A stretch of 62,842 nucleotides of DNA, counting the filler, from Theionarchaea archaeon (GTDB lineage: Archaea > Methanobacteriota_B > Thermococci > Methanofastidiosales > SZ-28-30), in assembly GCA_018992565.1 (NCBI GenBank). It is 5 parts of 5 records of this genome, joined end to end, with 100 filler letters (N's around TTAATTAATTAA, not from the genome) between each part and the next. Parts side by side here need not be neighbours in the genome. Positions count along the whole stretch, not along the records: positions 44,689 to 59,317 come from JACVGW010000070.1; 4 more parts are not named here. One strand, written 5' to 3'. Position numbers and translations under genes: made by a program. Under the pieces are notes generated by a model that worked only from the letters and a program-made list of their open reading frames with translations, had not been told where the DNA came from and ran no database searches. This document shows positions 10,404-59,417 of this stretch, piece after piece. Position 1 is the stretch's first letter; each line of letters begins with the position of its first letter.

Positions 10404-10437
10404 CACCTGCACATGAAAATGAAGAAATGGTGATTAT

Positions 10438-24885: not shown

Positions 24886-24904
24886 TGTGCACTCCTCACA
24901 TTCG

Positions 24905-26032: not shown

Positions 26033-26211
26033 AGAATCACCTCTAGATTAACAGAATGCCAATCCTGCCAATCCTAGCTCTTTATTTGTGAATGATTGTT
26101 TATAAGGACTTTCCCGAAGTATTCAGGCAATAATAATTTAAGATTCCGCCATAATTGGCAATCCCAACAGAGTAGAGACTAGAACCTTTGTTGGCTGCAG
26201 GAGGAATCTAT

Positions 26212-29829: not shown

Positions 29830-29929
29830 NNNNNNNNNNNNNNNNNNNNNNNNNNNNNNNNNNNNNNNNNNNNTTAATTAATTAANNNNNNNNNNNNNNN
29901 NNNNNNNNNNNNNNNNNNNNNNNNNNNNN
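29830..29929. other. Artificial contig linker
   Basis: N-TTAATTAATTAA-N. Confidence 0.97.
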
Positions 29930-37019: not shown

Positions 37020-38381
37020 TCATTCCTCTGGAGGGGTGATGAGATCCATTTCAAATCTGACAAGGGCATTGTACGCCCCTTTTATGTCGTCTGAGGTCCC
37101 TGTCTGCAAGGCTTCTCTATATTTTTCCTCCAGGAATTCCCTCTTCTGTTTTATGTCAATTTCCCTGAGATTTCGCTTCACTTTCCTGATTTCCGCAAGC
37201 TCATCAAGTTGCTCGTAAAGACTGAGGCTTTTCTCCCAGAGTCCCCTGGCTCTCGTCAGCTCTTCCTTTCGAGCATGACACAGTCCTTTGTTATAAAGTG
37301 AACCCGCAATCCTGAATGTGTTCTTTCCTGCCAATGTCAGTGCTCTCTCGAATAATGCCAGAGCATCATCAATGTCATCATTCATGTAAGAACAGGAACC
37401 CAGATTATTCAGGACGTCAGACAACAGGGGAGTGTCCTGTATGTCTTCAGCAGTTCTTTCACATCTCGTGTAGTACTGCTCTGCAACCATGAAGCTGGAT
37501 CTCTTGTATGAGACGTTTCCCAATTCCTTCAAGGCGTATGCCTTTCCTCTGCTGTCTCCAGTTTCTCCACAGATTCCTTCCATGCGGAGGAATGCAGCTT
37601 CCGCCCTGGCCAGGTCACCCTTCAATTCGTAGACACACCCCAACGTATAGAGTGCCCAGGTAATCTGGGAATTATCCAACCCATCAGGCAGGACAGCATC
37701 CAAGGCATGAAACAGCGCTGTATTATCCTCCTCTCGTTCCCGAGTTACCTTCTCCAATACTCTCTTGAGAGCAGTATCCCATTCTTCAGAAGTGCGCAGC
37801 TTTGAAGCGGCATCCGCTCTTGTCATGTAAAAGATTTCTTCTCCCTTTTTGGAGAGTCTGTATTGACTCTGATCCACATGGCTCTTTTTCTCATATTCTA
37901 TGTACCCTTTCATTCTCAGGTGCTTGAGGTTCCGGTAAATGCTTGCCCTGGATACACCTTTTATACTACCAAGATAGGTGTTGAAATGCTCTTCGACGTC
38001 TCCCGTTGTGACAGACTGCCTTTTCCCCACCACATGAATAATGTGGACCATGATCTCCCAGGGTTTTACGTCTAATTCTTCCATTGCCTTGACAATCCTC
38101 TTTCCGATGTCTTTCTTGAGGGGTTCTGAGGCTTGCTGGGATCTCCTCACATCTCCAAAAAGATTCAGCCCTCGAGAGGTGATAGTGTAGAAGGGAAGAA
38201 TGTCCTTCCTTTCAACTTTCAGGAGATATTCCTGTGCAAGAAGCTTGAGCATGATAGACTGCGTATTACTGCCTCCGATTCTCTTGGCCTGTTCTTCCGT
38301 GATTTTTCTCCCGTGACAACGGGCGAAGTCTAGGATCTCGACTGTGAGTTCCACCTCCTTTGTGCCATTGAGCAAAACCAT
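37020..38381 (-). CDS. Tandem winged-HTH plus TPR regulator
   Basis: wHTH 'VSRASIYRNLKHLRMKGYI..YRLSKKG'; TPRs 'ALYTLGCVYELKGDLARAE', 'VLNNLGSCSY', 'SLYNKGLCHA'. Confidence 0.8.
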   Translation of the reverse strand: MVLLNGTKEVELTVEILDFARCHGRKITEEQAKRIGGSNTQSIMLKLLAQEYLLKVERKDILPFYTITSRGLNLFGDVRRSQQASEPLKKDIGKRIVKAMEELDVKPWEIMVHIIHVVGKRQSVTTGDVEEHFNTYLGSIKGVSRASIYRNLKHLRMKGYIEYEKKSHVDQSQYRLSKKGEEIFYMTRADAASKLRTSEEWDTALKRVLEKVTREREEDNTALFHALDAVLPDGLDNSQITWALYTLGCVYELKGDLARAEAAFLRMEGICGETGDSRGKAYALKELGNVSYKRSSFMVAEQYYTRCERTAEDIQDTPLLSDVLNNLGSCSYMNDDIDDALALFERALTLAGKNTFRIAGSLYNKGLCHARKEELTRARGLWEKSLSLYEQLDELAEIRKVKRNLREIDIKQKREFLEEKYREALQTGTSDDIKGAYNALVRFEMDLITPPEE

Positions 38382-39213: not shown

Positions 39214-42078
39214 ATGATTACCCATCCGAAAATTCTCTATTTGTTCTCTGGACCTCTGGTGACCTTGGATGGCATCCCTCTTGACGTTCTAGACTTGAAG
39301 ACAGAGCGCGATGTCATTGTGAGGGAGATTTCTGCCTGCCAGAGAACATGCTCACTTCGTATTGGATATGCAACTATAGAGGAACTTGCCAGAGGCATTG
39401 AGGATGGATTCAATATTCTGCATATCAGTACTCATGGCAAGGAGGAATTTCTCTTGTTTGAGGATGGGAAAGGTGGAAGTCAGCCCGTGACAGGCGAATA
39501 CCTCAGGAGAATGATAGGCACGGGAGGTGCGGTTGAATTGGCTGTTATCAGCGCCTGCCATAGTGAAAAAGTTGGCTCACTGCTGGCTGATGCAGGTGTT
39601 CCACATGTTGTGGCAGTCAAGCGTGATTTTCCAGTAGTAGATCATGCAGCTATCGTCTTTACAGCCCATTTCCTCCGCAATCTTTTCCGCGGAAATACCG
39701 TAAAAATTGCCTTTGAGATGGCTTCTTTACTAGTAGAAGGGAACCCGGATCTGGTGAAGATGAGGCACTATCTCAAGGTTGCAGCCTATAGAAAGAGAGA
39801 GAAATTCATACCCGAAGAAGAGAAGTTTGTTCTCCTCCCTCGAGATGGTTCACATGAGAGTCCCCTCCTCTCTCAAGATGTGGCGCGCGGTACTGTGACA
39901 ATTGAAGAGCCGCTGCCGTCACCCTCGAATCTCCCCACGAAACCACAATTCTTTACAGGTCGATCAGGAGAGATGCATGCTGTTATCAGTGAGCTCTTGC
40001 AGAGCAGGCTGATCACCTTGACAGGAGTGGGCGGCATCGGAAAAACAACACTGGCCATCGAGGTAGCACGATGGACCTGTTGGCGGAATATCTTTCCCCA
40101 GGGAGTATATTACGTGGACCTCAGACAGACTGACACTGCAGATGGGGTTCTTGATCTACTCTGTGCAGCTCTTGAGGTGAGAGTGTCTCGGCTTCAGAAT
40201 GTCATTACACACCTTGAAAACCGTCGCTGCTTGCTGGTCCTGGATAATGCAGAGGATATCCTCTGGTACGATGAAGACGGGATGCAATATATTGCTAGCA
40301 CCATTTTGAGGACCACTTCCCATACGAAGTTGTTGATAACAAGCCAGAGGCCAGTGGGAGGAAATCTGTACGAGCCTGAACGTGTGTGCAGAATTGGTCC
40401 ACTGGAACGCAGGTATGCTACGCAGCTCTTTTGTGCCACAACGAAGAGGAGAGTATTACAGAATGAATATGGATCACCTCTCTTCGATGACCTCGTTGAC
40501 CAGTTAGGAGGACACCCCTTATCACTTGTACTAACAGCTCGTCAGCTTGCCCCCGGGGTGACTCTTGAAGATATACATGAGAGAATTGAGGTACACAAAG
40601 CCAAAGCAATCAAGACAAAGCATATCACGGGGAGGACTCTGGATCATGGGGAAAGCCTGGTAACAGCCCTGGCCTCAACATATCATGTCCTGTCAGATAG
40701 AGCACAGATACTTTTTCAGGTACTCTCCCTCCTTCCAGCAGGGGTCAAGAAGGATGTATTTGAAGACATCTGGGGCAGTCCAGTCTGGGAATATGTGCAA
40801 GAATTAAATGATGCCTCTCTGGTAGAGGTGAGAACCGGGAGAGTGACACTGTTGCCACCGGTGAGGTTGTTCGCATTGACTGTTCTCACTGATGAGGTCA
40901 GGAGTTGTTATCGTCCCAGAATTGTGAAAGTCATGGGGACATTCACCAGAATACTGTACAAGGGTCACACTACGGGGAGCTCGGGAGACTATCGGGCTCT
41001 TTTTACTGTAGAAGAGCCAAACCTTCGAGCTGTCGTTGACTTCCTCAGTGAATCATCTCAAAGAAGAGAGAACACGTCATCTCCTGGGCTCTTTGGGGCT
41101 GAACTCATTTACCTGTACATTTTCCACAATCGATGGAAAGAAGCACAGACTGTTGGTTCCAGGATTCTATCCCATCTAAAAAGATGTGAGGATCCAGAGG
41201 GTGAGGCGCATGTGCTCATAGCACTGGGTGTCCTTGCTTTTCGAACAGGGAATTTAGAAGAAGCCAAGACGCAGTATGAAAAAGCTCTCCAAAACTATCA
41301 GGATACCCATGCACGAATGGGTGTGGCAAATGCCTTCTGGACCTTGGGTGATCTTCTTTTTAGAACAGGAGATTTCCAGGGAGCTCAAGAGAGATTTGAA
41401 AAAGCCTTATGTATCTACCGTGAGATTGAAGTGGACCTCGGCGAAGCAAATGCCCTTCTGCGCCTTGGACTCCTTGCTTTTCTCACAGGACATCCTGGAG
41501 AAGCTCAGGGACAGGTTGGAAAAGCTCTGGAGATCTATCAAGGTATTCACGTGGAGATTGGTGAAGCAAATGCTCTCCGGATACTGGGAGATTTTGCCAT
41601 GTGGACAGGTGATAGTGTTACAGCTCATACCCAGTATCGGAAAGCTCTGAAAATCTACACACGTAACAGCGTGAAAGATGGTGAAGCGCGCACCCTCGTC
41701 CATCTGGCCCGATGGGCTGCTCTGGCAGGCGAGAGGGAGGGTGTAGAGAGATATCTCGATGATGCGTTCGCAATATATGAGGAAAGAGAAGATCTTGACG
41801 GCCAGGCTCATGCACACATGGTGAAAGCGTTGCTCTTTCTTGCTGTCCACAACTTGACCCGAGCAAGGCGTCAGCTTGAATATTGTTCATCTATCCAGGA
41901 AAAAACGTGCCAGCATTCTGAAGCAGCACAGTGGCTCATTACATACGCAGGGTATTTTATGCCACACAGCTGCAAAGAAGAAGCATCACTTTGTCTGGAA
42001 TATGCAGCGAGATTTGCATCAACAGCACGGAATTTCCATCTGCTCGACAGAACTATGGAACTGCAAGTAGTACTATGA
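39214..42078 (+). CDS. CHAT (caspase-like) protease - STAND/NB-ARC NTPase - TPR protein
   Basis: CHAT dyad LHISTHG and ISACHS; FTGR; Walker A GVGGIGKT; Walker B LLVLDNAE; GHPLSL; several TPRs; RBS GGAGG. Confidence 0.88.
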   Translation: MITHPKILYLFSGPLVTLDGIPLDVLDLKTERDVIVREISACQRTCSLRIGYATIEELARGIEDGFNILHISTHGKEEFLLFEDGKGGSQPVTGEYLRRMIGTGGAVELAVISACHSEKVGSLLADAGVPHVVAVKRDFPVVDHAAIVFTAHFLRNLFRGNTVKIAFEMASLLVEGNPDLVKMRHYLKVAAYRKREKFIPEEEKFVLLPRDGSHESPLLSQDVARGTVTIEEPLPSPSNLPTKPQFFTGRSGEMHAVISELLQSRLITLTGVGGIGKTTLAIEVARWTCWRNIFPQGVYYVDLRQTDTADGVLDLLCAALEVRVSRLQNVITHLENRRCLLVLDNAEDILWYDEDGMQYIASTILRTTSHTKLLITSQRPVGGNLYEPERVCRIGPLERRYATQLFCATTKRRVLQNEYGSPLFDDLVDQLGGHPLSLVLTARQLAPGVTLEDIHERIEVHKAKAIKTKHITGRTLDHGESLVTALASTYHVLSDRAQILFQVLSLLPAGVKKDVFEDIWGSPVWEYVQELNDASLVEVRTGRVTLLPPVRLFALTVLTDEVRSCYRPRIVKVMGTFTRILYKGHTTGSSGDYRALFTVEEPNLRAVVDFLSESSQRRENTSSPGLFGAELIYLYIFHNRWKEAQTVGSRILSHLKRCEDPEGEAHVLIALGVLAFRTGNLEEAKTQYEKALQNYQDTHARMGVANAFWTLGDLLFRTGDFQGAQERFEKALCIYREIEVDLGEANALLRLGLLAFLTGHPGEAQGQVGKALEIYQGIHVEIGEANALRILGDFAMWTGDSVTAHTQYRKALKIYTRNSVKDGEARTLVHLARWAALAGEREGVERYLDDAFAIYEEREDLDGQAHAHMVKALLFLAVHNLTRARRQLEYCSSIQEKTCQHSEAAQWLITYAGYFMPHSCKEEASLCLEYAARFASTARNFHLLDRTMELQVVL

Positions 42079-44588: not shown

Positions 44589-44688
44589 NNNNNNNNNNNN
44601 NNNNNNNNNNNNNNNNNNNNNNNNNNNNNNNNTTAATTAATTAANNNNNNNNNNNNNNNNNNNNNNNNNNNNNNNNNNNNNNNNNNNN
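44589..44688. other. Artificial contig linker
   Basis: N-TTAATTAATTAA-N. Confidence 0.97.
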
Positions 44689-44756
44689 CGTCTTTACCAC
44701 TATCTTTAAATAAGACAAGGTAGTTACCTACATAACTCAAGAAAAGGTGTATTGAA

Positions 44757-46649
44757 ATGAGAATACTGGCTATACACTCGGATTTTGTTGAATTTGAGGT
44801 GAAGAAGAAGGCCATGAAAGAGGCCGAAGACACTGCAGAAAAGCACAAAGCAATTGAGGAATGCCTTGTTGTATTCTCTGCTGTGGAGAAAAAGGACGAG
44901 GAGAATCCCGAGGCTACAACCACTCGCTTCGTCAGCGAGGTAAAGGATATTGCTGGACAGGTTGGAACTACACGGATTGTGCTCTACCCTTACGTTCATC
45001 TCACATCGACTCCAGGTAGTCCGGGTACAGCTCTCACCATCATGAAAAATGCTGAAGAGCTGTTGGGAGCACAGGAGTTTGAGGTAGAACGTGCTCCATT
45101 TGGCTGGTATAAAGCATTTACAGTTAAGTGCAAAGGTCATCCCCTCTCTGAACTCTCAAGGGAATTCGGCCCTGAAGAAGAGGAGAAAGAGACAGTTTCG
45201 GAAGCCCTTGAAAAGGAGAAGGAACTGGAATCTCGCTGGTACATCCTGGATATGCAAGGGAAGCTGCATGAATTGGAATCTGATAGAGGGAGCATATTTG
45301 GATTTGACTTCTCCAATAACGAGAGACTGAAGCTTTTCTGCCAGTATGAAATGGCAAAGGTACGTGCTGTGACACAAGAACCTCCTCATGTCACCTTTAT
45401 GAGAAAACTGGAATTGGTGGACTATGAGCCAGGGTCTGATCCTGGAAACCTCAGATACTATCCCAAAGGCAGGTTCATAAAGAGCATGATTGAGGAGACA
45501 GTCAATCTGAAAATGAATGAGTACGGTGCCATGGAAATCGAGGCTCCCATCATGTATGACTATGAACATCCTTCGTTGAAGAGCTATCTGCACAGGTTCC
45601 CGGCGCGTCAATATACTATACAGACTCCCAACAAGAGGGTGTTCTTGCGGTTTGCTGCCTGTTTTGGTCAGTTCCTCATGGCTCACGACATGAGTATCTC
45701 TTACAGGCACCTGCCTCTCAAGCTGTACGAATTGACCAGGTACAGCTTCAGGGTGGAACAGCGGGGAGAACTGACTGGGCTTCGGAGGCTAAGAGCTTTT
45801 ACAATGCCTGACTGTCATGCCTTTTGCAGGGATATTGAACAGGCCAAGAGAGAGATGGAAACCCGGTTCAGGGTGTCCTGGGAGCTCCAGGAGTCCTTTG
45901 GACTGAGAATGCCTGATGACCTGGAATTTGCCATCAGGGTAACCAGGGACTTCTATAATGAAAATAAGGAGTTTGTGGCCGGACTGGTGAAAACGTGGGG
46001 AAAACCTGCTTTGATTGAAATGTGGGAGAAGCAGTTCTTCTACTTCGTATTGAAGTATGAATGGAACTTTGTGGACGCTTTGAACAAGGCAAGTGCATTG
46101 ACAACTGATCAGATTGATGTTGAGAACTCCCAGAGATATGAACTGGGTTACACAGATCAGGATGGCAAGAAGAAGGACTTCGTTCTCATGCATCTATCCC
46201 CATCTGGAGCAATTGAACGGGTGATGTATGCGCTCCTGGAGAAGGCGTACTTTGATCAGCAGAAAGGAAAAAAGCCCATGCTCCCCGTATGGGTATCACC
46301 GACTCAGGTGAGGCTCGTCCCTGTGACTGATGCACATGTGACGTTCTGTGAAGAAGTTGCATCTCAGCTTAAGAAAGAGTCTGTACGGGTGGATATTGAT
46401 GACACATCAGAAAGTGTGGGAAAGAGGATCAGGAATGCAGAAAAGGAATGGGTTCCATACATACTGGTAGTTGGAGACCAGGAAGCCGAATCTGGTCAGT
46501 TTGCTGTGCGAGTGAGAGAGACGGGAACCCAGGAGAAAATGAATCAGGATGTCCTCATAGAGAAGATCAGAGAGAAGACAGAGGGCATGCCGTATAGACC
46601 CCTTCCTTTACCCAGGATGCTTTCCAAAAGGCCCATTTTTGTGGGCTAG
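44757..46649 (+). CDS. thrS: Archaeal-type threonyl-tRNA synthetase
   Basis: Editing domain MRILAIHSD..YPYVHL..APFGWYKAF..CKGHPLSE; LRFAACFG; RAFTMPDCH; SGAIER. Confidence 0.96.
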   Translation: MRILAIHSDFVEFEVKKKAMKEAEDTAEKHKAIEECLVVFSAVEKKDEENPEATTTRFVSEVKDIAGQVGTTRIVLYPYVHLTSTPGSPGTALTIMKNAEELLGAQEFEVERAPFGWYKAFTVKCKGHPLSELSREFGPEEEEKETVSEALEKEKELESRWYILDMQGKLHELESDRGSIFGFDFSNNERLKLFCQYEMAKVRAVTQEPPHVTFMRKLELVDYEPGSDPGNLRYYPKGRFIKSMIEETVNLKMNEYGAMEIEAPIMYDYEHPSLKSYLHRFPARQYTIQTPNKRVFLRFAACFGQFLMAHDMSISYRHLPLKLYELTRYSFRVEQRGELTGLRRLRAFTMPDCHAFCRDIEQAKREMETRFRVSWELQESFGLRMPDDLEFAIRVTRDFYNENKEFVAGLVKTWGKPALIEMWEKQFFYFVLKYEWNFVDALNKASALTTDQIDVENSQRYELGYTDQDGKKKDFVLMHLSPSGAIERVMYALLEKAYFDQQKGKKPMLPVWVSPTQVRLVPVTDAHVTFCEEVASQLKKESVRVDIDDTSESVGKRIRNAEKEWVPYILVVGDQEAESGQFAVRVRETGTQEKMNQDVLIEKIREKTEGMPYRPLPLPRMLSKRPIFVG

Positions 46650-46865
46650 TCAAAGGCACTCTCTGAGTGGCAGACTATTTTTCTTTCATTTTTTTTTGGA
46701 CTAAACGATCTTCCTCTCATTCAGAGGATGGGAGTTCTTTTCACCTGGGACACATCTATCTCTTTTTGGTTCATAATCTTCCAGAGACGTGTCCAGAGAA
46801 TTCCCGCGGAATATAAAAGAAGTAATCAAAAGGTATCAATCAAAAAAGATAAAAAAGAAGAAAGG

Positions 46866-48314
46866 TTAAGGACAATACCTGAAAGGATGACGTGCGTTGT
46901 CTTTGACTTCCATAATCTCTTCTTTGGTGGGTCTTCCTTCCATAGCCCTCCTGATGGCATGACGGGTGGCCTTGTAATTGTTAATATATACCTGTTTTCT
47001 GTTAGAAGCTGAGGGATGCACAAACACATTGGCAATCAGCATCACATCCTCAGGCAGTATGCCATCTTGCACTGAATCTGCTACTGCCTTGGCGACACCT
47101 GCCTGGGCGGGACCATAGACAATTGAGGCATGTCGCATGTCCTTCATTTTCACCGTCGGAATGATCAGCGTGTTGGGTTTTACCAAGACGTTAGGTTCCA
47201 GTATGGCCTGCAGTGCATTCTTATCAGAAGCGAGTACTATTGCGTAGGCTTCTCCAACGGGCCCTTTCCGTTCTCCAATCAACAAATCAATGTGAGCAAC
47301 TTCTGCCCCTTCGCCGCACAGGGCTTCTCCGATCTTCAACGAGAAGTCACCAATGACTGCAGGAGTAATGCCCGCAGTGGTGAACCGTGACTGTATCTCT
47401 TTTCCTTCCAACTCAAAGGTGATTTCCTCTGCTTTGATTTTACCCAGTTTTTCCAGCTCAATCCTAATCTCCTCTTTGTTCTCATAAGACAAGGTATCAC
47501 CAATCATCAAGGGTTTCCTGCACTTCCCCACCTTTACACCCAGGTAGTTCAGCCCCGCTTTCGTCCCCAGAGCACCTGTAGCGCAAATGATTCTGGCTAA
47601 TTTCTGGATCTTCCTCTGGATTTCCACAGCTTTTTCATACTCTTTGTTCTGCATGGCATTGTAGATTTTCAACCAGTAATCACCAACTATGTTGGCCGAT
47701 GCCAGAATCATTCCATGTGCACCTGCAGCGAGAGAGGGCAATACAATCTCATCCCAGCCACATACAACATTTATCCTAGATGAAACTTTTTCCAGCAGGG
47801 TCATAATGTAGGACATATTCCCTGAGGAGTCTTTGATGCCCACAATGCCCTCCAGTTCAGCCAGGTCTTCCACAACTTTCCAGGGAAGGGTAACCCCGGT
47901 CAAGGGAGGAATATTATACAAGATAATGGGAAGCTCTACAGATTCCTCAAGGGTGGCAAAGTGCTCAAACATTCCTTTGTCTGCAGGTTTCATGTAAAAG
48001 GGAGTTACCACCAGGCAGGCATCAGCACCGATATCCTGGGCTGCTCTTGTCATGGCAATAGTCTTATCAGTTCCCGAGTCTCCTGTTCCTGCAATTACTT
48101 TCATTCCCTGGGCCTCCTCCACTGCGATCTCTATGGCTTTTTTCTTTTCTTCGAAGGTCATACTGGAGAATTCACCTGTGGAGCCGCAGGGTACAATCCC
48201 ATGGACACCCTGCTCTTTGCAGTAGTGAATGAGATTCTTGAAAGCTTCTTTATCGACAGAGTCTTTGGTAAAGGGAGTGGCCAGAGCCACATTGACTCCT
48301 TTTAACTCAAACAT
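46866..48314 (-). CDS. DapA/NAL-family class I aldolase fused to C-terminal formaldehyde-activating enzyme (Fae) domain
   Basis: N-part GSTGE, LYNIP, GIKDSSG; C-part IGEALCGEGAEVAHIDLLIG..VKPNTLIIP..GPAQAGVAKAVAD..NNYKAT..HPF, matching Fae. Confidence 0.88.
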   Translation of the reverse strand: MFELKGVNVALATPFTKDSVDKEAFKNLIHYCKEQGVHGIVPCGSTGEFSSMTFEEKKKAIEIAVEEAQGMKVIAGTGDSGTDKTIAMTRAAQDIGADACLVVTPFYMKPADKGMFEHFATLEESVELPIILYNIPPLTGVTLPWKVVEDLAELEGIVGIKDSSGNMSYIMTLLEKVSSRINVVCGWDEIVLPSLAAGAHGMILASANIVGDYWLKIYNAMQNKEYEKAVEIQRKIQKLARIICATGALGTKAGLNYLGVKVGKCRKPLMIGDTLSYENKEEIRIELEKLGKIKAEEITFELEGKEIQSRFTTAGITPAVIGDFSLKIGEALCGEGAEVAHIDLLIGERKGPVGEAYAIVLASDKNALQAILEPNVLVKPNTLIIPTVKMKDMRHASIVYGPAQAGVAKAVADSVQDGILPEDVMLIANVFVHPSASNRKQVYINNYKATRHAIRRAMEGRPTKEEIMEVKDNARHPFRYCP

Positions 48315-48408
48315 GCAAATCACCACTTGATGTTTTGCAGGGAGTTTAAAATCCTTTTCATGAATCGGTATGAATCTCAGACATCTACAACGTGGAGCCT
48401 GGAAGTGC

Positions 48409-49026
48409 TCATCTTGGATCCAGGCTCTTCCTGGAAAGTACGTGGGCCAGGCGCAAAACCTCTGGGAATTTGTGATTCACAACACTGAGTCTGGTGTATT
48501 CAACAGCTGATTCAAGTGATATCATGTGCCCCACACTGACCACTACAGGATTCATCCTTCTATGGGTTCTCACCAAAGCGCCCACTACGTCATTCTGATA
48601 ATATAGATATGTCCAGTCCACAAATGATGTATCAGCCTCCCCTACCAGAACTCGGCCTGCCACACCAATAGTGGGCCTTTGAAAGTATAATCCTGTGTGG
48701 CAGGCTAGTCCAAACTTCCTGGGGTGGGCTCTTCCATGCCCATGAACAAACAGAAGATCACATGAAACCCTCTTAACCACTTCATATATCAAAGGAAATT
48801 CCCTTAACGCAAAAAAAGAGCTTATATAAGGAAAAGGGGGCTTTCCGGTCCAGGATACCTCCTGGGTCACTACCCCCTCTTCCATGGCCACACAGGCGGC
48901 TGAGGCGGTGGTTCCCCTGTAAGAGACATCCACCCCAGCCAGTGTCACCACCCTCTCAAAGCAGTCCTCTTCCAGGACATACTCTGAGAGAAGATGTTGG
49001 AATCTTTCACCTCCTTTTCCAATCAC
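48409..49026 (-). CDS. nfi: Endonuclease V family protein
   Basis: AGVDVSY, FPYISSFFALRE, HPRKFGLACHTG, PTIGVA, VSVGH, PEVLRLAH. Confidence 0.85.
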   Translation of the reverse strand: MIGKGGERFQHLLSEYVLEEDCFERVVTLAGVDVSYRGTTASAACVAMEEGVVTQEVSWTGKPPFPYISSFFALREFPLIYEVVKRVSCDLLFVHGHGRAHPRKFGLACHTGLYFQRPTIGVAGRVLVGEADTSFVDWTYLYYQNDVVGALVRTHRRMNPVVVSVGHMISLESAVEYTRLSVVNHKFPEVLRLAHVLSRKSLDPR

Positions 49027-49200
49027 TCACTCACCCTTGGACGGGATCAGTAACATCTTGTCATTGAGAGGCAAAGCGGATAGGTAAACAGTAATAGAAC
49101 CTCGTGCGTTCCTATAGGCTACGCCAACATCAGTCCATCTATCTTTGCCCCCGACATCTTTCACCACTCGTACCACAAAATCTGGCTTTACTTCACTCAT
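49027..49200 (-). CDS. Small beta-rich hypothetical protein, 57 aa
   Basis: GGTGA RBS before MSEVKPDF; motif RWTDVGVAY.N..GSITVYLSALP; abuts endoV. Confidence 0.7.
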   Translation of the reverse strand: MSEVKPDFVVRVVKDVGGKDRWTDVGVAYRNARGSITVYLSALPLNDKMLLIPSKGE

Positions 49201-49344
49201 GCTATCACCCAGGTCCAAACAATCAAGACATAGTTAAAAGCATTTACCCAGAGCAGAGGAAAAATATTCATGAGAGCACATCAGTGCAGAACAAGGGGCC
49301 TCTCACATCTATCTCCCCAGGGTTCTGACATAGATACTCCTGCG

Positions 49345-49752
49345 TCATCCATGGTAGAATTCCTCTTCAACCTTCTTCTTCTCCTCTTCCTTTATCCGAG
49401 GTAAAGGGATGGGGGGCACAACATTGAGTTCTTTTGCCAGAATAACTGCCTCCATTAACCCCTTCTCTATGATTGCATTCTGTATGTGAACATTCGGTAT
49501 GGATCTGCTGGCTCCCCATTGTTCAAGAATCTCATCAGCATCCTCTCCCTGATAGTATAACGTTCCATCTATCTTTATGGTGGCGATAGAAGGATTATAA
49601 ATGGAATTGAACACGAAATCTATACATAGCTCGTTATTCCTTTTTTCCATATTTATGACGGAACTGTTGTTCTTAATTCCTACTTCAGGGAACGTTTCAC
49701 CTTCTTTCAAGAATCTTCTGGCTTCAATTCCTCTCACAATTAATCGCATCAT
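49345..49752 (-). CDS. Archaeal hypothetical protein (possibly SecB-like fold)
   Basis: IEARRF..NNSS..FVFNSIYNP.IATIKIDG..VPPIPLP; start MMRLIV behind GGTG. Confidence 0.65.
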   Translation of the reverse strand: MMRLIVRGIEARRFLKEGETFPEVGIKNNSSVINMEKRNNELCIDFVFNSIYNPSIATIKIDGTLYYQGEDADEILEQWGASRSIPNVHIQNAIIEKGLMEAVILAKELNVVPPIPLPRIKEEEKKKVEEEFYHG

Positions 49753-49853
49753 GACAACACCTATCCTCTCATTTCCGTGATACATTATAATAGTTTGCTC
49801 AGATGAAACGAGTACGTTCATCCACAGAGGAGAGATGAAAGTAGTGATTCCAC

Positions 49854-50756
49854 TCATAATCGCCTGAGCAAGACCACCCTGCTCTCGCTCTGAGAATCGC
49901 AGACCTCATAGGATGAATAATCCTCAACAGCATGTGCAAACGCTTCAACTTGCGAAAAAGAGGGCATATTCTCAATAGTCATTCTGTGTCTGGAGTACCC
50001 TACAAACATGTATGCCTTGGCTTCCACAAAATCAGGAGCCGCTTTTTCGATGAGCTGGGCATACATCTCGGGATGAACCATGTTGATCCCGTTCACCAGA
50101 GTGAGCCGGATCACCCTCTGAGTCTCAAGCTGGGAGAATAGTGATACAGTCTCCATAATTTTGGACCACCCCTCTGTCTGTGGATGGCATAAGGCTCTGT
50201 AAATGGCTTCCGTGGGAGCAGCCAGCGTCAGATACAAGTTCCAGGGCAGCTCCAGGGATTCTAGAACCCCCGGGTTGGTGCCATTAGATACTAAGAAGGT
50301 TGTCATTCCCCGGGCTTTGTAGTGATGTATGAGTTCAGACAATTCTGGATACAATGTGGGTTCCCCCGACAGAGAAATAGCCACATTGTTGGGATACTGA
50401 GCTTCTTTCAGTTTCTTGGCAGAAACCCTTTCTGGCAGCCCAAAGTACCCTGCCAGCAGGGCTTTCTGAGCTTCCAAACTCTCTTCAACAATGAGATCTG
50501 GCGGATCATATTCAGGAAGAGCAGGTTCAGTGAATTGAGTTGGCCTCCAGCAGAATAAGCATTTCTGCGTGCACGCAGTGACCGCAGGAGTCATCTGGAG
50601 GCAGCGATGAGAATTGATTCCATAGAACTTTTGTTTGTAACAGAATCGATCTTCCAGGAGGCTTTTTCGAAGCCAATGGCATAGCTTCACTGCAGAATGA
50701 TTACCCACAATTCGGTAGTGCTGTCTTTTCAGGAGGTTCTTCAGTTCATGATCCAT
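49854..50756 (-). CDS. taw1: 4-demethylwyosine synthase (radical SAM)
   Basis: HSAVKLCHW, CYKQKFYGINSHRCLQMTP, CTQKCLFCWR, ISLSGEPTLY, KAYMFVGYSR. Confidence 0.95.
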   Translation of the reverse strand: MDHELKNLLKRQHYRIVGNHSAVKLCHWLRKSLLEDRFCYKQKFYGINSHRCLQMTPAVTACTQKCLFCWRPTQFTEPALPEYDPPDLIVEESLEAQKALLAGYFGLPERVSAKKLKEAQYPNNVAISLSGEPTLYPELSELIHHYKARGMTTFLVSNGTNPGVLESLELPWNLYLTLAAPTEAIYRALCHPQTEGWSKIMETVSLFSQLETQRVIRLTLVNGINMVHPEMYAQLIEKAAPDFVEAKAYMFVGYSRHRMTIENMPSFSQVEAFAHAVEDYSSYEVCDSQSESRVVLLRRL

Positions 50757-50997
50757 TGGTGCTCTGTATTCTTGCGTTATAAAAGGGTTTATGCTCTCAG
50801 ACCTTCCGGGTGCTTCACTTCATAAGCATGTATATGAATATCTGTCTCCGTCTGAAGGTACGTGAATCGGCTCTCGGAAAAGAGTCAACACAGCAGTCTC
50901 TTTAAGGAGTGGCAGGATTCTCACCTTCCAAGAACTAGAACCATTCAAAAAAAGAAAAGGAGTATAGTAGACGAGCTATCAGTGTTTAACCTTTTCT

Positions 50998-51087
50998 TCA
51001 TCCTGGGTATGGTACATCCCCGGGGACAGGACCTCCAAGGAGTATGATCCCGACCATGCCGAGAATGAATGTGTGTGTTGCACACAT
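50998..51087 (-). CDS. Small peptide, 29 aa: MCATHTFILGMVGIILLGGPVPGDVPYPG
   Basis: RBS GAGGTGA, TAAATATAA box upstream, U tract about 40 nt downstream (50947-50958); below ORF-track cutoff. Confidence 0.6.
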   Translation of the reverse strand: MCATHTFILGMVGIILLGGPVPGDVPYPG

Positions 51088-51508
51088 GCACATCACCTCG
51101 GCATTATATATCTGTATTGATTATATTTAGAAAATTATCAATCCAAAAAGAGAGGACGATGATGCAAAGTGTGAGAATCAGAGTCTCGGAATTTGAGAAA
51201 TCATGAAGAGAGCCTATGGTCAAGTGCCATAGAGTGACCTTCGAAGAATGGAAGAGGGACACCTGTGGTGCACTGAAGATTGAAATTCAACCTGAGAGAA
51301 AGATTTGCCTATGACAGAATCTATTCGCATGCACGGGTGTTATCATGGGATGCACAGAACAGTTGCACTTCATGTCTCTCTTTCTCACCTTCATGTGAGA
51401 TTTCTCTCATACATGATCTACAAAACCCTGCACTCTTTTCTCACCTGCCCAGACTTCTGCATCCCTGTACATCAATACCTTTATATACTCTTTATGCCAT
51501 TCTCACTC

Positions 51509-52087
51509 ATGAAGAGATCAGAAACCCGTGTCCTGAAAGACCCTGAAAAGATCAAGATAGTCGTTGACGAGACCAGAAGGAATATTCTGTCTCTTCTCAG
51601 ATTCAGTGAATTGACTGTTTCCCAGATAGCTGACGTGTTGCAAAAAGACCAGTCCACTATTTACCGGCACATGAGCAAACTGGAAGAAGCAGGATTCGTG
51701 GAAGTGAGGGGAGAGAAGAAAACCCACCACATTCCAGAAAAAGTCTATGCGCGGACTGCCCACTTCTTCATTTTGGTTCCTGAAACTGAGGAAACGTCCA
51801 GGCTCCTGGAAACATACTCTGCCAAGAGGATGGAAAAGCTGTTCCAGCTGATGAAGAAAATGGGGGCAGACATTCACATTGATGACAACCTCATTACAGA
51901 GGGTAGACGCTTTGTTGCTGCCCTTCGCAGTGAATTGTTTGAAGAATACGAAGAAATTGACGAACCTTTGGACATTATCATGCTCAAGAAGCTGGAACTG
52001 TTCCTCATCCTGCTTCGAATGGAAGAAAATGAGAATTTCAGGGAAAAGGTGTTCCAGTTCATCAGGAAAATGAAAGGATCTAACTAG
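51509..52087 (+). CDS. ArsR-family winged-HTH regulator
   Basis: DETRRNILSLL..LTVSQIA..STIYRHMSKLEEAGFV..EKVYAR; TTTATATA 22 nt before ATG 51509. Confidence 0.85.
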   Translation: MKRSETRVLKDPEKIKIVVDETRRNILSLLRFSELTVSQIADVLQKDQSTIYRHMSKLEEAGFVEVRGEKKTHHIPEKVYARTAHFFILVPETEETSRLLETYSAKRMEKLFQLMKKMGADIHIDDNLITEGRRFVAALRSELFEEYEEIDEPLDIIMLKKLELFLILLRMEENENFREKVFQFIRKMKGSN

Positions 52088-52099
52088 GAGTGGACTGTC

Positions 52100-53515
52100 A
52101 TGGAAGATTTAGATACGATAGTTGCTGCAGCCATAAAGAAAGGTGCTGATTACTGTGATGTGAGGTTTGTTGTAAATCGCGAAGAAGACATTCGGGTGAG
52201 AGGACGGGACCCGGAAAAGGTGTCTTCTAAAATAGACCAAGGATACGGGGTTCGTGTTCTCATGAAGGGCGCCTGGGGCTTTGCTGCGGGTCAGGATCCT
52301 GAGCAGACTGCGGCACGAGCAGTCAAAGTAGCAAGGGGCAGTGTTCTAGCAAAAAAAGAAGATGTTAAACTGTCAGATCTGACCCCATATACAGACTCCT
52401 GGAAGGCTCCCATAAAGAAAGATCCCTTTTCAGTTCCTATGGAAGAGAAATTATCCCTTCTGTTAGACTGCGGCAAAACTCTCATTGAACATGAAGATGT
52501 CAAGGTGGCTCAGGCTACCATGCGTATCCGGTCCCAGGAAAAATGGTTTTTGAGTTCTGAAGGGGCCACTATTCATCAGGACACAACATTCTGTGGTGCA
52601 GGGATTTCAGCCACGGTGGTTAAAGGAGGAGACATGCAGAAACGGTCATACCCTACTTCATTTGATGGGAATTTTTCGCAACAGGGGTATGAGTTCGTGG
52701 AAGCTCTCAGTCTATATGATCACTGTGAAGAAACAGCAAGAGAGGCCATCCAGCTAGTGGATGCTGAACCATGCCCCTCGGGCACAATGGATATTGTTCT
52801 GGATTCCTCCCAGCTAGCGCTACAGGTTCATGAATCGTGTGGCCACCCTACTGAGCTGGATCGAGTTCTGGGGTTCGAAGCCAGCTATGCGGGAACGAGC
52901 TTTCTCACTCAAGAGAAGTTGGGTCACTATACATATGGATCCCCTTCCGTAACCATTGTGGCAGATTCTACCACACCCGGTGGGCTTGGGACATTTGGTT
53001 ATGATGATGAAGGTGTCAAGGCATGTAGGACTGTTCTGGTGGACAAAGGCATCTTTTCAGGGTACCTGACATCCAGGGAAACTGCTTACCAGATGGGAGA
53101 GAAAAGCAATGGGGCCATGCGGGCCACTGATTTCAACTTCATGCCCATCATCCGGATGACCAATATCAACTTGATGCCAGGAGACTATGCCTTTGAGGAA
53201 CTGCTGGAAGACATCCAGGAAGGTATCTACATGCAGACCAATAGAAGTTGGAGCATTGACGACAGGAGAATCAACTTCCAGTTTGGATGTGAAATTGGAT
53301 ACAAGATCACAGACGGCGAGCTAACAGATATGGTCAAGAATCCCAGCTACACTGCTCTGACCCCTGAATTCTGGGGAGCTTGTGATGCAGTGTCAAAAGA
53401 CTGGCAGTTGTGGGGTGTTCCCAATTGCGGAAAAGGGGAGCCCTCTCAGACCATGTTTGTGGGCCACGGGGCAGCACCAGCCAGATTTAGAAACATGAAG
53501 ACGGGGGTGGGATAA
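52100..53515 (+). CDS. tldD: TldD metalloprotease subunit
   Basis: HESCGH zinc motif, YDDEG, PIIRMTN, CGKGEP. Confidence 0.92.
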   Translation: MEDLDTIVAAAIKKGADYCDVRFVVNREEDIRVRGRDPEKVSSKIDQGYGVRVLMKGAWGFAAGQDPEQTAARAVKVARGSVLAKKEDVKLSDLTPYTDSWKAPIKKDPFSVPMEEKLSLLLDCGKTLIEHEDVKVAQATMRIRSQEKWFLSSEGATIHQDTTFCGAGISATVVKGGDMQKRSYPTSFDGNFSQQGYEFVEALSLYDHCEETAREAIQLVDAEPCPSGTMDIVLDSSQLALQVHESCGHPTELDRVLGFEASYAGTSFLTQEKLGHYTYGSPSVTIVADSTTPGGLGTFGYDDEGVKACRTVLVDKGIFSGYLTSRETAYQMGEKSNGAMRATDFNFMPIIRMTNINLMPGDYAFEELLEDIQEGIYMQTNRSWSIDDRRINFQFGCEIGYKITDGELTDMVKNPSYTALTPEFWGACDAVSKDWQLWGVPNCGKGEPSQTMFVGHGAAPARFRNMKTGVG

Positions 53516-54855
53516 TGAAAGAGGAGTACTTGTCTATCGTGGAAAGAGCAGTGAAAACCTCCAACGCAGATCAGTGTGAAGCGCGCCTGTCAGGTATGTC
53601 CTGGGGGTTGACTCGATTTGCCAATAATTACATACACCAGAATGTTGTAGAAGATAATGCAGAGCTCACAGTGCGATCCGTCTTTGGAAAAAAGATAGGA
53701 AAAGCCCAGACGAATCAGCTTGATCCGGAATCCATAGCCGAGGTAGTCAGAAGAGCTGATGGCATTGCCCGGGTCCAGACGGAGATCCCTGATTTTGTGT
53801 CGCTGCCCGCACCTGAATCAATACCTTCAGTAAAGGGGTTCTACAAGGAGACGGCTGAGGTGGAACCAGAGGCCCGTGCTCTGGTGGTGAAAGCAGCAGT
53901 GGACCAGGCAGAAACCCTCGGTATTGAGAGTGTCTCTGGAACCCATTATACAGGGAAAGAGGAAATTGCTGTTGCCAATTCTCTGGGAATAGAAGCCTAT
54001 TTCGAAGGTACTGTCTCCTGCTTCAAAATCAATACGTGCCTGGAGCAGGGAACGGGGACAGCTCAGAGTTTTTCCCGGAACCACAGAGACCTCAACCCTG
54101 AAGCATTGACTGAGAAGGCATGCCAGAAAGCTCTGAAGAGCCGAAAGACTGAACCTGCATCTCCAGGTTCATACCAGGTTATCCTGGAAGAACAGGCAGT
54201 GTGTGAAATGCTTGTATACCTGGCCATGATGACCTTTGGTGCTCAGCCGTACCTTGAAGGAAGGAGTGCTTTTTCAGGCCATCTTGGAGATCAGGTGGCA
54301 GACAGCAGTGTCTCTCTGTGGGACGACGGACTGGATGAGAGGGGATTCCCGTTTCCCTTTGATGCAGAGGGCGTACCCAAGCAAAGAGTGAATCTCATAG
54401 AACGTGGTCTTGCTGGCAATGTCGTGTATGATTCATTCTACGCAGCAAAAGCAGGAACGCAGAATACGGGACACTCTGTAGACATGCCCTTTGGCGCAGG
54501 ACCCTTTTCTGCGAACGTATTTATGGGTGAAGGCACATCCAGCCTTGAGGATTTGATTTCTGAATGTGAAAACGCCATTCTGGTAACCCGATTCCATTAT
54601 ATTAACCCCATGCACCGCTTAAAAACTGTTATTACCGGGATGACCAGGGACGGGACTTTTCTCGTCAAGAATGGAGAAATCGTGAGAGGGTTGAAAAACA
54701 TGCGATTCACTCAGAGCGTCCTGGACGCACTGTCCACAGTACAGGGAATAGGCAATAACCTGGGGATTCTCCGCATGGAGTATGCCAAAGCCACCGTATG
54801 TGCTCCTGCTCTCCGGATTGGAGAGTTCACCTTTACGGGTTCAACGTTGTTCTAG
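53515..54855 (+). CDS. pmbA: TldE/PmbA subunit
   Basis: TRFANNYIHQN, FDAEG, TGMTRDG, NMRFTQS; no HExxxH. Confidence 0.88.
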   Translation: MKEEYLSIVERAVKTSNADQCEARLSGMSWGLTRFANNYIHQNVVEDNAELTVRSVFGKKIGKAQTNQLDPESIAEVVRRADGIARVQTEIPDFVSLPAPESIPSVKGFYKETAEVEPEARALVVKAAVDQAETLGIESVSGTHYTGKEEIAVANSLGIEAYFEGTVSCFKINTCLEQGTGTAQSFSRNHRDLNPEALTEKACQKALKSRKTEPASPGSYQVILEEQAVCEMLVYLAMMTFGAQPYLEGRSAFSGHLGDQVADSSVSLWDDGLDERGFPFPFDAEGVPKQRVNLIERGLAGNVVYDSFYAAKAGTQNTGHSVDMPFGAGPFSANVFMGEGTSSLEDLISECENAILVTRFHYINPMHRLKTVITGMTRDGTFLVKNGEIVRGLKNMRFTQSVLDALSTVQGIGNNLGILRMEYAKATVCAPALRIGEFTFTGSTLF

Positions 54856-55728
54856 TATCCCTACCCTTTCTCTCACTTTTTCTTCTGTAATCTCTACGTA
54901 AGGCCCAATTGATTCCACCCACAATGATGCAGTGCAGGAAGCAAACATCCCTGATTCATACAGGTTTCCGGTGCGCATGTATTCTACGATGAACCCTGCA
55001 GCATATGTATCTCCTGCCCCAGTGGGATCTCTGGCTTCCGTGGTGTAAGGAGGTATCTTCAGAAGCTCTGAACCGTCATAGATGAGAGACCCGTCCCCTG
55101 CCAGAGTGACGATACAAATCTCGGCCCCGAAACTGTACAGAGACTCCAGGACCTGTTCAGGATACTTCATTGGGTTTTTCCCTGTCATGATGCGAGCTTC
55201 CAGTTCGTTTGGCTTGACGACACTGAACAGAGGGAGTATCTCTTTGAAGGACTGAGGGAAGAAATGGTTGATCTGACCATTCTCTATGCCTCGGAGGAAT
55301 CCTTGAGGATCACAGAAAAGCAGGGATGGCAATTCAGACAGCTCAACGACCAGTGAAGGATCTACCTCCTGCAGGATCGGCCCAAAAAGGAGAGCATCTG
55401 CATCAAGGACTTCACTCGGGACTTCTTTAATAGTATCCGCTCGTCCCAGGATTTCAAGTTCCCTGTTTCCCCTGTCATCGTAGAGCAAAGAGAATCCACC
55501 CGTCTCTCGTGAAGGATATAACCAGGGTTTCACACCGAATCCAGTGAGAATCTCTTCTGTCTCCGTTCTATAATCATCTCCCACGCAGCCCACCAGAGCA
55601 GCTTCACAGTTGAGCTGGCTGCACACAATGCATGCATTGGTGGAACATCCGGATAGTACCCTTTCACTGGTTCGAGTTAGGGGCGTATTAATGAGGTCAT
55701 ATACGGGGTTTCCAATACCCACCATCAT
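54841..55728 (-). CDS. PfkB/ribokinase-family kinase
   Basis: DPQGFLR, KPNELEA, DPTGAGDTY. Confidence 0.88.
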   Translation of the reverse strand: MMVGIGNPVYDLINTPLTRTSERVLSGCSTNACIVCSQLNCEAALVGCVGDDYRTETEEILTGFGVKPWLYPSRETGGFSLLYDDRGNRELEILGRADTIKEVPSEVLDADALLFGPILQEVDPSLVVELSELPSLLFCDPQGFLRGIENGQINHFFPQSFKEILPLFSVVKPNELEARIMTGKNPMKYPEQVLESLYSFGAEICIVTLAGDGSLIYDGSELLKIPPYTTEARDPTGAGDTYAAGFIVEYMRTGNLYESGMFASCTASLWVESIGPYVEITEEKVRERVGILEQR

Positions 55729-56345
55729 GGAAATGCCCTCCTTGCATACAACAACCTCTGGAAAGCAGTGACATGTGAGAGAATCCCGATAAGCAATAGT
55801 GCTGCCGTAATGCTCCTGTCAAAGAATCCATACAGTACCACTCCCAGGAGCAGCACTGTCATCTTTTGCATGCGTTCCATGAGCCCGACACTCATGGCAG
55901 ACACACCTTTTGATTCGATGCGAGCCCTCACATATGACGCCATGATCATGCCAGAAAAACACAGCAGGACAACCCATCCCTCAGCAAACCCTCCACATGC
56001 TATGCCAAAAAGAACGACAACTTCACAGTAGCGATCAATGGTGGCATCCAGGACAAACCCAAAATCAGTCTTTCTGTCTTGAGCCCTTGCCACAGACCCA
56101 TCAAGAACATCAAAAGCCAGCGTGATTACCAGGAAGAGTCCTCCCAGAAGCTCTCTTCTGCACGAAAAGAAATACGCACTTATCACAGCAGGAATCAGAG
56201 AGAGAAGTGTTAGTTGATTGGGGGTTAACCCAGTTCTGGCCACTGCACGGCCAAGGTTCAAGGTATGTTCTTCATACCATTGTCTTCGATTCATGGGTAT
56301 CAGGTTCTCAGGCGCAATATAAACCTTTTCGAAGACCTGTGACAA
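55725..56345 (-). CDS. CDP-alcohol phosphatidyltransferase (archaetidylinositol-phosphate synthase-like)
   Basis: TPNQLT, DVLDGSVARA..FGFVLDATIDRYCE, SYVRARIE, VGLMER. Confidence 0.88.
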   Translation of the reverse strand: MSQVFEKVYIAPENLIPMNRRQWYEEHTLNLGRAVARTGLTPNQLTLLSLIPAVISAYFFSCRRELLGGLFLVITLAFDVLDGSVARAQDRKTDFGFVLDATIDRYCEVVVLFGIACGGFAEGWVVLLCFSGMIMASYVRARIESKGVSAMSVGLMERMQKMTVLLLGVVLYGFFDRSITAALLLIGILSHVTAFQRLLYARRAFP

Positions 56346-56460
56346 GAGAGTGCCAGATGTCTTTCATATCATATAGTCTTTTGCCACGTACCCTGGTGAC
56401 ATAAAAAGGCAACTGCAACCTCCCGATACATTTAAGTACAAAAAACGTAATCAGAAGAGC

Positions 56461-56829
56461 ATGAATCCGAAGTATTGCCTGCTCACCACGGTGGTCATAC
56501 TGTGTGGATGCATTTCCCAGTCTCCCCACCTGGAGTTTTCTGCTGGTCCCTGCGACAGCGACATTGATCCCTACAACACAGACATGGGTGTGAAAAATGT
56601 CCGATGGATAGACGATGAAACACTGGTGGTCACAGTGTATGTCAATATCAACTGCGCCGAAGAGATCACGGATGGAGACTACCAGATCCTAGGCGACACG
56701 ATTATCCTCGAATATACTGCTCCCGAATGCAAGACCTGCACGTTCTGTCTGTGTGCTCACAAGATGACATACAGGTTCCAAAACCTTGAGAAGAAAGAAT
56801 ATCAATTTGAACTGAAGAAGGAGACGTAG
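56461..56829 (+). CDS. Hypothetical lipoprotein
   Basis: Lipobox-like LCGC; conserved-looking NC and CxC; TTTAAGTA box about 24 nt upstream. Confidence 0.7.
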   Translation: MNPKYCLLTTVVILCGCISQSPHLEFSAGPCDSDIDPYNTDMGVKNVRWIDDETLVVTVYVNINCAEEITDGDYQILGDTIILEYTAPECKTCTFCLCAHKMTYRFQNLEKKEYQFELKKET

Positions 56830-59317: not shown

Positions 59318-59417
59318 NNNNNNNNNNNNNNNNNNNNNNNNNNNNNNNNNNNNNNNNNNNNTTAATTAATTAANNNNNNNNNNNNNNNNNNNNNNNNNNN
59401 NNNNNNNNNNNNNNNNN
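59318..59417. other. Artificial contig linker
   Basis: N-TTAATTAATTAA-N. Confidence 0.97.

Follow-up and report, generated by a model that had tools for sequence, protein, structure and literature searches.

A DapA-like aldolase fused to a formaldehyde-activating enzyme in Theionarchaea and other uncultured archaea, and its possible place at the homoserine node

A 62,842-nt stretch of DNA from a sediment archaeon of the Theionarchaea (NCBI GenBank assembly GCA_018992565.1), hereafter the window, encodes on its minus strand a protein in which a class I aldolase of the dihydrodipicolinate synthase (DHDPS) family is joined to a formaldehyde-activating enzyme (Fae). Judged from its domains, its conserved residues, its phyletic distribution and the genes around it, this fusion may be a bifunctional 4-hydroxy-2-oxobutanoate (HOB) aldolase/Fae that replaces homoserine dehydrogenase (Hom) at the homoserine node, with the biosynthetic direction as the likelier one; the probability of this reading is put at about one half. 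More broadly, and more tentatively, many uncultured archaea (Theionarchaea, Methanofastidiosia, Bathyarchaeia and Asgard archaea) may make homoserine not from aspartate, but from pyruvate and the one-carbon (C1) unit of methylene-tetrahydromethanopterin (methylene-H4MPT). The route would run via HOB and would employ the aldolase-Fae fusion, an aminotransferase and an enzyme that resembles U32 peptidases and CutC. This would be a natural equivalent of one branch of the engineered homoserine cycle and a non-orthologous replacement of Hom, by which the synthesis of threonine and methionine is tied to the Wood-Ljungdahl C1 pool. In a literature search, whose coverage left out most subscription journals, no paper was found that describes a fusion of DHDPS with Fae or a natural route to homoserine via HOB.

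The gene is an uninterrupted open reading frame (ORF) of 486 amino acids counted from a GTG codon (46866..48326, minus strand), with its stop codon at 46866-46868. The true start is probably the ATG at 48312-48314 (minus strand), four codons into the GTG frame (residue 5, 'MFELKG'), which agrees with the end of the gene given in an earlier note on this DNA and with the N-termini of the homologues ('MF..G' in all close ones). A candidate TATA-like box, TTTTAAA, was picked out by inspection of the sequence about 30 nt upstream of this ATG, at approximately 48342..48348 on the same strand. Three segments follow one another on the minus strand: (i) residues 8-285 (47472..48305), a DHDPS-family class I aldolase domain (Pfam PF00701, E-value 1.2e-72, profile positions 2-280 of 289); (ii) residues 286-331 (47334..47471), a linker in which the AlphaFold2 model predicts a beta-hairpin at residues 299-316; and (iii) residues 332-482 (46881..47333), a Fae domain (PF08714, E-value 1.1e-51, profile positions 1-158 of 159). 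The claim of the earlier note that an aldolase barrel is joined in frame to a complete Fae domain thus holds for this ORF. Among NCBIfam models, the protein scores 243.7 bits with the dapA model TIGR00674 (cut-off 206.15) and 184.4 bits with the one_C_fae model TIGR03126 (cut-off 118.05), the latter over profile positions 2-160 of 160. The AlphaFold2 model, built on 44 homologues, has a pLDDT of 89.4 and a pTM of 0.86, and its barrel superposes on solved DHDPS structures with a TMt of 0.93-0.95; no solved chain spanning both domains was found in the structure comparison (TMq about 0.57).

The fusion is not an assembly artefact, since both Pfam domains occur in 120 of the 120 best database homologues, and since two other public DNA runs each contain the entire fusion stretch on one contig (23.6 kb and 25.2 kb), differing from it by 1-2 bases. 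A lone 159-nt contig from one metatranscriptome run is identical to part of the gene (47285-47443); it may represent DNA carry-over, such that transcription is not thereby shown. Longer (triple-fusion) forms were looked for and none was found, though this is weak evidence.

By record title, the closest relatives of the fusion come from Theionarchaea (82-95% identity) and then from Methanofastidiosia (65%), followed by hundreds of Bathyarchaeia and several Asgard lineages at 55-59% identity; in NCBI and JGI they are named '4-hydroxy-tetrahydrodipicolinate synthase' or hypothetical. A HMMER scan of 1.84 billion representatives returned 11 clusters (at 50% identity) whose match runs unbroken through the aldolase and Fae domains, the most distant at 34% identity. 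A tree of the aldolase domain groups the 44 fusions in a single clade (support 0.992), which also contains four truncated fusions and the protein P0221. The sister of this clade consists of three stand-alone proteins that already carry Leu or Met at the site of the arginine of DapA. Many Asgard genomes (e.g., G144:C135:11109-14004, G111:C65, G193:C75, and G181:C1) have two tandem fusion paralogues, the second copy being 40-49% identical, with a match that ends at about residue 430-465 (a degenerate Fae); in the genomes G146, G169, and G241 the second copy lies inside an open frame of about 1000 amino acids.

Gene content was compared in three sets of genomes. The first comprises five reference genomes with the fusion, namely the Theionarchaea metagenome-assembled genome (MAG) G001, three complete genomes of Bathyarchaeota and a complete Atabeyarchaeum genome, together with 14 control genomes. 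G001 serves as the proxy for the genome of the window; its fusion is 93% identical and its DNA is syntenic over window positions 44689-56777 at about 84% nucleotide identity. Within the GTDB class of G001, any Fae is present in just 3 of 100 sampled genomes, too few for statistics on that class. The second set consists of 151 Asgard genomes with a completeness of at least 85%, 76 with the fusion and 75 without it, where fusion-bearing is defined by a rule of our own choosing (a best E-value of 1e-84 or lower with the window protein, P0001, plus one evident fragment). The third set, independent of the second, consists of 121 Bathyarchaeia genomes of the class of the reference genome G003, 41 with the fusion and 80 without. 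Two-by-two counts are given below in the order fusion with gene, fusion without gene, gene without fusion, and neither.

The aldolase half shares with DapA the fold, an identity of about 37-38% (the PDB sequence matches being the DHDPS of A. aeolicus and M. jannaschii), the Schiff-base lysine, the catalytic tyrosine and the GxTGE motif. The DHDPS catalytic set is present in the window protein as Lys165 (47832-47834, minus strand), Tyr137, Tyr111, and Ser49/Thr50 (all within 47472..48305, minus strand), the equivalents of K161, Y133, Y107, and T44 of E. coli DapA. Tyr137 is kept in 43 of 44 family members and Lys165 in 42, the two cluster representatives that have lost it being P0131 and P0135. 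What the fusion lacks is the arginine, R138 in E. coli, that binds the carboxylate of aspartate semialdehyde (ASA). Its position is occupied by Leu142 (47901-47903, minus strand) within the motif LYNIPPLTG, as the earlier note had read it, and by C, L, V, or A in 42 of the 44 fusions, whereas 73 of the 123 stand-alone DHDPS proteins have Arg there. Replacement of the arginine by a small or hydrophobic residue would fit a small, neutral aldehyde substrate. The fusions differ from the stand-alone proteins also in conserved positions of their own (W149, E153, D154, E193, L208, W218, and Q241), a G-A instead of an N-P loop, a 3-residue insertion at G276 and, at the C-terminus, the Fae domain itself.

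The gene content of the hosts points the same way. DapB_C is found in none of the five reference fusion genomes, G001 included (controls 11/14), and neither is aspartate-semialdehyde dehydrogenase (Asd; 0/5, G001 again included, versus 14/14 controls), so that these genomes have genes neither for the supply of the DapA substrate nor for the step that follows DapA. In G001 and G005, no DHDPS homologue besides the fusion was detected, and in the tree the fusion clade stands apart from the Arg-bearing DHDPS proteins (support 0.992). That the protein is nonetheless a genuine DapA (4-hydroxy-tetrahydrodipicolinate synthase) is scarcely credible, even though the nearest solved structures are DHDPS, the source databases use that name, and the TIGR00674 score, because of which annotation pipelines assign it, lies over the cut-off. 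By its residues and its genomic context, the fusion is not DapA, but a different pyruvate-type class I aldolase derived from it.

The Fae half, judging from its residues, looks functional. It aligns to residues 6-166 of the M. extorquens Fae structure 1y5y (E-value 8e-33) with the motif GEAL.G.G.EVAHIDL intact. Within AHIDL, which aligns with AHID of 1y5y, His345 (47292-47294, minus strand) and Asp347 (47286-47288, minus strand) correspond to the active-site residues of M. extorquens Fae; His345 is kept in 38 of 44 fusions and Asp347 in 40, and the six fusions without the histidine are divergent paralogue clusters. Co-occurrence with genes for H4MPT, another check named in the earlier note, was borne out: methenyl-H4MPT cyclohydrolase (MCH) is present in all five reference fusion genomes and, among the Asgard genomes, in 74 of 76 with the fusion versus 31 of 75 without (74/2/31/44, odds ratio (OR) 52, p 2e-15). 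A different activity for the protein would be an aldolase with a larger aldehyde as its substrate, or a dehydratase or decarboxylase of the DHDPS superfamily, in which the Fae-like domain is structural, regulatory or pterin-binding without any handling of formaldehyde. The functional diversity of the DHDPS family (NanA, KdgD, and HpaI-like models are among the NCBIfam matches) would allow this, and the divergent paralogues without the Fae histidine (6/44) or the Schiff-base lysine (2/44) suggest that the scaffold can persist without full catalysis. It is, however, improbable for the window protein, whose Fae motifs are intact as they are in 38 of 44 relatives, whose Fae domain exceeds a curated equivalog cut-off, and whose family is confined to H4MPT genomes, as the Asgard counts for MCH indicate.

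The known system most like the fusion is the archaeal Fae-Hps (NF009833), in which Fae is joined to an aldolase-type lyase, hexulose-6-phosphate synthase (Hps), that has formaldehyde as a co-substrate, likewise in H4MPT-containing archaea. The remark in the earlier note that Hps is the usual archaeal partner of Fae accords with G001: a second Fae exists in all five reference genomes, and in G001 it is a bona fide Fae-Hps (584.5 bits, cut-off 274), encoded separately from the fusion and with no counterpart within the window. The Fae domain of the window protein is 47% identical to that of the G001 Fae-Hps, and the Fae-Hps model matches the fusion in the Fae part only (residues 330-482, 156.6 bits), with no Hps domain recognized. 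Unlike in Fae-Hps, the partner domain in the fusion is a Schiff-base pyruvate aldolase of the DHDPS family and not an Hps with the orotidine-monophosphate decarboxylase fold, Fae is C-terminal rather than N-terminal, and the carbon skeleton would be a 2-oxo acid rather than a sugar phosphate, with both enzymes occurring in the same genomes. The fusion is probably a bifunctional Fae-aldolase like Fae-Hps, with a different aldolase and a new physiological reaction. Fae is a homopentamer with its active sites between subunits, and the DHDPS-type barrel is tetrameric. In G002, a complete Bathyarchaeota chromosome, the genes for the fusion (C1:332971-334426) and for Fae-Hps (1403814-1404289) both appear frameshifted within their Fae parts in this assembly, probably through sequencing error rather than as pseudogenes.

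The distribution of the fusion is complementary to that of Hom, the enzyme that connects homoserine with aspartate semialdehyde. Hom is present in one of the five reference fusion genomes, versus 14/14 controls. Among the Asgard genomes it occurs in 12 of 76 with the fusion versus 54 of 75 without (12/64/54/21, OR 0.073, p 1.5e-12), and the Bathyarchaeia give much the same odds ratio, with Hom in 9 of 41 versus 63 of 80 (9/32/63/17, OR 0.076, p 3e-9). At least one of the two, fusion or Hom, is found in 130/151 Asgard and 104/121 Bathyarchaeia genomes. Threonine synthase, further along toward threonine, is retained: ThrC-family matches are present in 54 of the 64 Asgard genomes that have the fusion and lack Hom, the same share as in the genomes without the fusion (63/75). 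The window itself encodes a threonine synthase (19685-20743, plus strand; NF005035, 330.6 bits, cut-off 301), which is noteworthy because its relative G001 is without Hom, Asd and a canonical homoserine kinase (ThrB). Tail-to-tail with it lies an alanine-type aminotransferase (20980-22170, minus strand; NF006230, 537.7 bits, cut-off 534), and a second ThrC-like ORF at 26988-28442 scores under its cut-off.

A further protein is linked to the fusion both by neighbourhood and by distribution. This partner is an uncharacterised protein without a Pfam or NCBIfam family, and two forms of it exist, of 430 aa and 310 aa, about 20% identical to each other and with invariant residues in common. Beside the fusion in 80 loci, the 430-aa type is found in 62, and the 310-aa type in 6 of those without it. 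Genome-wide, fusion and partner are associated in the Asgard (72/4/28/47, OR 30) and the Bathyarchaeia sets (33/8/6/74, OR 51). The partner is not encoded within the window; in G001, a 310-aa form lies on another contig (65% identity). The partner is modelled as a TIM barrel. It resembles CutC (Z 15.7) and the U32 peptidase Mk0906 (Z 15.0) most closely, though hardly more than it does other barrels (Z 13-14), and its Foldseek TM scores stay below 0.5; the nearest Atlas clusters are U32-named (0.98). Its family of 2795 homologues is highly conserved, and all of them are unnamed.

Asgard genomes that have the partner without the fusion associate it with genes of the homoserine node. Among 28 such genomes, Hom is present in 24 and MCH in 3, and Asd is missing in 22. 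In 14 partner loci from fusion-less Asgard genomes (L114-L127), the genes that come after the partner are those for a class I/II aminotransferase (in 11), Hom (in 10) and an aldehyde:ferredoxin oxidoreductase (AOR; in 10), in an operon of the order partner, aminotransferase, Hom, AOR (e.g., L114 5904-11359). This operon could be an ATP-independent route from aspartate through aspartate semialdehyde to homoserine, or could serve homoserine breakdown. In one fusion-less locus, L118, a weak, unfused DHDPS-like ORF abuts the partner. The aminotransferase, Hom and AOR are in none of the 12 partner loci taken from fusion-bearing Asgard genomes. In L128-L139, which come from Asgard fusion genomes, a gene for an ECF-type S-component transporter lies upstream of the partner, housekeeping genes are found too, and 6-7 of the 12 loci hold a divergent 500-aa ThrC-family pyridoxal phosphate enzyme with a C-terminal PadR domain; because those genomes are related, the synteny may be merely inherited. 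In G001 (L113, contig 12, 6769-12185), the 310-aa partner is upstream of an acetate-CoA ligase (1045 bits) and a DRTGG protein resembling the N-terminus of Pta, and is divergent from the gene for the glycine-cleavage H protein (GcvH). As clues to the role of the partner, its surroundings in G001 and in the 12 Asgard fusion genomes are weak. AOR adjoins the fusion in locus L073. The neighbours of the fusion in the window (ThrRS, endonuclease V, and Taw1), and TrmI, which is downstream of it in most Bathyarchaeia loci, are uninformative on function.

Homoserine and its 2-oxo and aldehyde relatives are what the aminotransferase, Hom, AOR and aldolase-Fae have in common, and for this reason HOB is proposed as the product or substrate of the fusion. 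The Fae domain would interconvert methylene-H4MPT and H4MPT plus formaldehyde. Lys165 would form a Schiff base with pyruvate, at the C3 of which the aldolase would add or release formaldehyde, and the formaldehyde would be handed between the two fused active sites. The net reaction, methylene-H4MPT + pyruvate + H2O <-> HOB + H4MPT, would be that of an H4MPT-dependent pyruvate hydroxymethyltransferase. An aminotransferase would then link HOB with homoserine, such that the fusion stands in for Hom as the connection to the homoserine node, more likely in the direction of threonine and methionine precursors. The U32/CutC-like partner would act alongside the fusion, encoded elsewhere in the genome in the lineage of the window. 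The interconversion of HOB with pyruvate and formaldehyde had been offered as an example in the earlier note; it gains indirect support from the complementarity of fusion and Hom and from the partner-aminotransferase-Hom-AOR operon. The same chemistry is the basis of an engineered homoserine cycle, in which pyruvate and formaldehyde are converted to HOB by the promiscuous E. coli aldolase RhmA, and HOB to homoserine by an aminotransferase (PMC8879981). This conversion works, and in that review HOB is called a non-native metabolite (PMC8879981). The engineered cycle is synthetic and relies on free formaldehyde and a class II aldolase; the fusion, by contrast, would be a class I enzyme that nature has dedicated to this step and coupled to H4MPT.

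The biosynthetic direction is favoured because fusion or Hom is near-universal in both large genome sets, because a threonine synthase is encoded in the window, and because ThrC-family genes are kept in genomes with the fusion and without Hom. These data point more toward biosynthesis than toward the amino-acid catabolism to which the earlier note had assigned the enzyme. In the opposite, catabolic run, homoserine or another source of HOB would be transaminated to HOB, the aldolase would cleave it to pyruvate and formaldehyde, and the fused Fae would immediately trap the toxic formaldehyde as methylene-H4MPT for the C1 pathway. Several points favour such a run, and weigh to that extent against a biosynthetic fusion. 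The equilibrium of Fae lies toward methylene-H4MPT, which favours cleavage; so does the analogy with Fae-Hps, which handles hexulose-6-phosphate in this manner and captures rather than donates formaldehyde, and a second Fae is at hand in all five reference fusion genomes. In Methanofastidiosia, an apparent operon (L002 6922-11188) consists of a transporter of the DASS family (Na+/sulfate-dicarboxylate), the 310-aa partner and the fusion, and a transporter ahead of these genes suggests uptake and breakdown. The usual role of AOR, which accompanies Hom in the partner operon of fusion-less genomes, is to oxidise aldehydes. The window also holds many genes for peptidases and for the degradation of amino acids. 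On the other hand, homoserine does not belong to the amino acids of proteins and has no evident source, the presence of fusion or Hom in nearly all genomes is what one expects of an essential function and not of an optional one, and the threonine-synthase family persists in the genomes with the fusion alone. The catabolic run is regarded as less likely than the biosynthetic one, and as the strongest of the rival readings.

Other observations sit uneasily with the fusion as a biosynthetic stand-in for Hom. Both genes occur together in 12/76 Asgard and 9/41 Bathyarchaeia fusion genomes, and Hom adjoins the fusion in loci L010 and L011. Asd is not associated with the fusion in the 151 Asgard genomes (36/40/36/39, OR 0.98); the idea that the fusion replaces the aspartate-semialdehyde route was rejected on this account, the complementary gene being Hom. 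Canonical ThrB scores over its cut-off in none of the five reference genomes and in 11 of the 151 Asgard genomes; these few positives, 3/100 with the partner and 8/51 without it (p 0.007), are too scarce to bear on the role of the partner. No aminotransferase adjoins the fusion, and that of the window is only 33% identical to the one in the operon. The gene content of the window genome is extrapolated from a relative with about 84% nucleotide identity. Lastly, the two-by-two tests are all based on MAGs, take no account of shared ancestry, and score presence by chosen E-value thresholds.

The proposed reaction resembles that of PanB (PF02548) by function only, in that PanB, too, hydroxymethylates a 2-oxo acid at C3 with a methylene-pterin as the donor; its fold is unrelated, its mechanism is metal-dependent, its cofactor is tetrahydrofolate and its substrate is alpha-ketoisovalerate. 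The fusion might, by extension, be a hydroxymethyltransferase for a 2-oxo acid other than pyruvate, for instance an H4MPT-dependent PanB analogue that converts alpha-ketoisovalerate to ketopantoate for coenzyme A (CoA) synthesis. The chemistry would be the same, with a C3 enamine attacking formaldehyde, and PanB is missing in four of the five fusion genomes, as it is in the two methanogen controls. As the main function, this was rejected: three of the four PanB-less genomes (G001, G003, and G005) are also without the archaeal phosphopantothenate synthetase (PF02006, present in 2/5), and would therefore have no pantoate-using pathway, yet they keep the fusion. Moreover, G002 has PanB and the fusion together, methanogens do without the fusion, and the anti-correlation with Hom would go unexplained, so that a role in ketopantoate synthesis is very unlikely. 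Across the five reference genomes, no phyletic link emerged between the fusion and pantothenate genes. G002 is the sole one of these with PanB, phosphopantothenate synthetase and Hom.

Should the fusion indeed join pyruvate to homoserine, a gene annotated as DapA in thousands of archaeal genomes would encode a reaction that is not known to occur in natural metabolism, the H4MPT-dependent hydroxymethylation of pyruvate or its reverse. Bathyarchaeia, Asgard archaea and Theionarchaea would no longer have a gap at Hom in their amino-acid metabolism, the Wood-Ljungdahl C1 pool would be linked directly to C4 amino acids, and metabolic reconstructions of abundant sediment archaea would change, including calls of auxotrophy and of the lysine pathway. 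Synthetic C1 assimilation could, in addition, draw on the fusion as a natural enzyme that channels formaldehyde. The U32/CutC-like partner, for its part, would represent a large, conserved orphan family that is functionally tied to the same metabolic node.

Elsewhere in the window, positions 3142-12045 hold in a row an acetoacetate-CoA ligase (967 bits), a family B DNA polymerase, an enoyl-CoA hydratase, a biotin carboxylase and a carboxyltransferase, which may constitute an acyl-CoA carboxylase module. At 22329-26032 (minus strand) lie genes for RidA, a 2Fe-2S protein, a TfrA/NadB-like flavoprotein and a BhcC-like protein of the D-serine-dehydratase fold (225 bits, cut-off 690), and this cluster looks like one for amino-acid or hydroxy-aspartate metabolism. 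A 954-aa protein with CHAT, NB-ARC/NACHT and TPR domains (39214-42078, plus strand), adjoined by a TPR protein (37020-38381, minus strand), has a STAND-type architecture and is possibly defence-related. Pairs of 44-N runs with 12 bases between them recur at a spacing of about 14.8 kb (15005-15104, 29830-29929, 44589-44688, and 59318-59417), and a run of 100 N at 26566-26665 interrupts a PanE/ApbA-like ORF (26188-26676); these runs look like scaffolding gaps or masked stretches.

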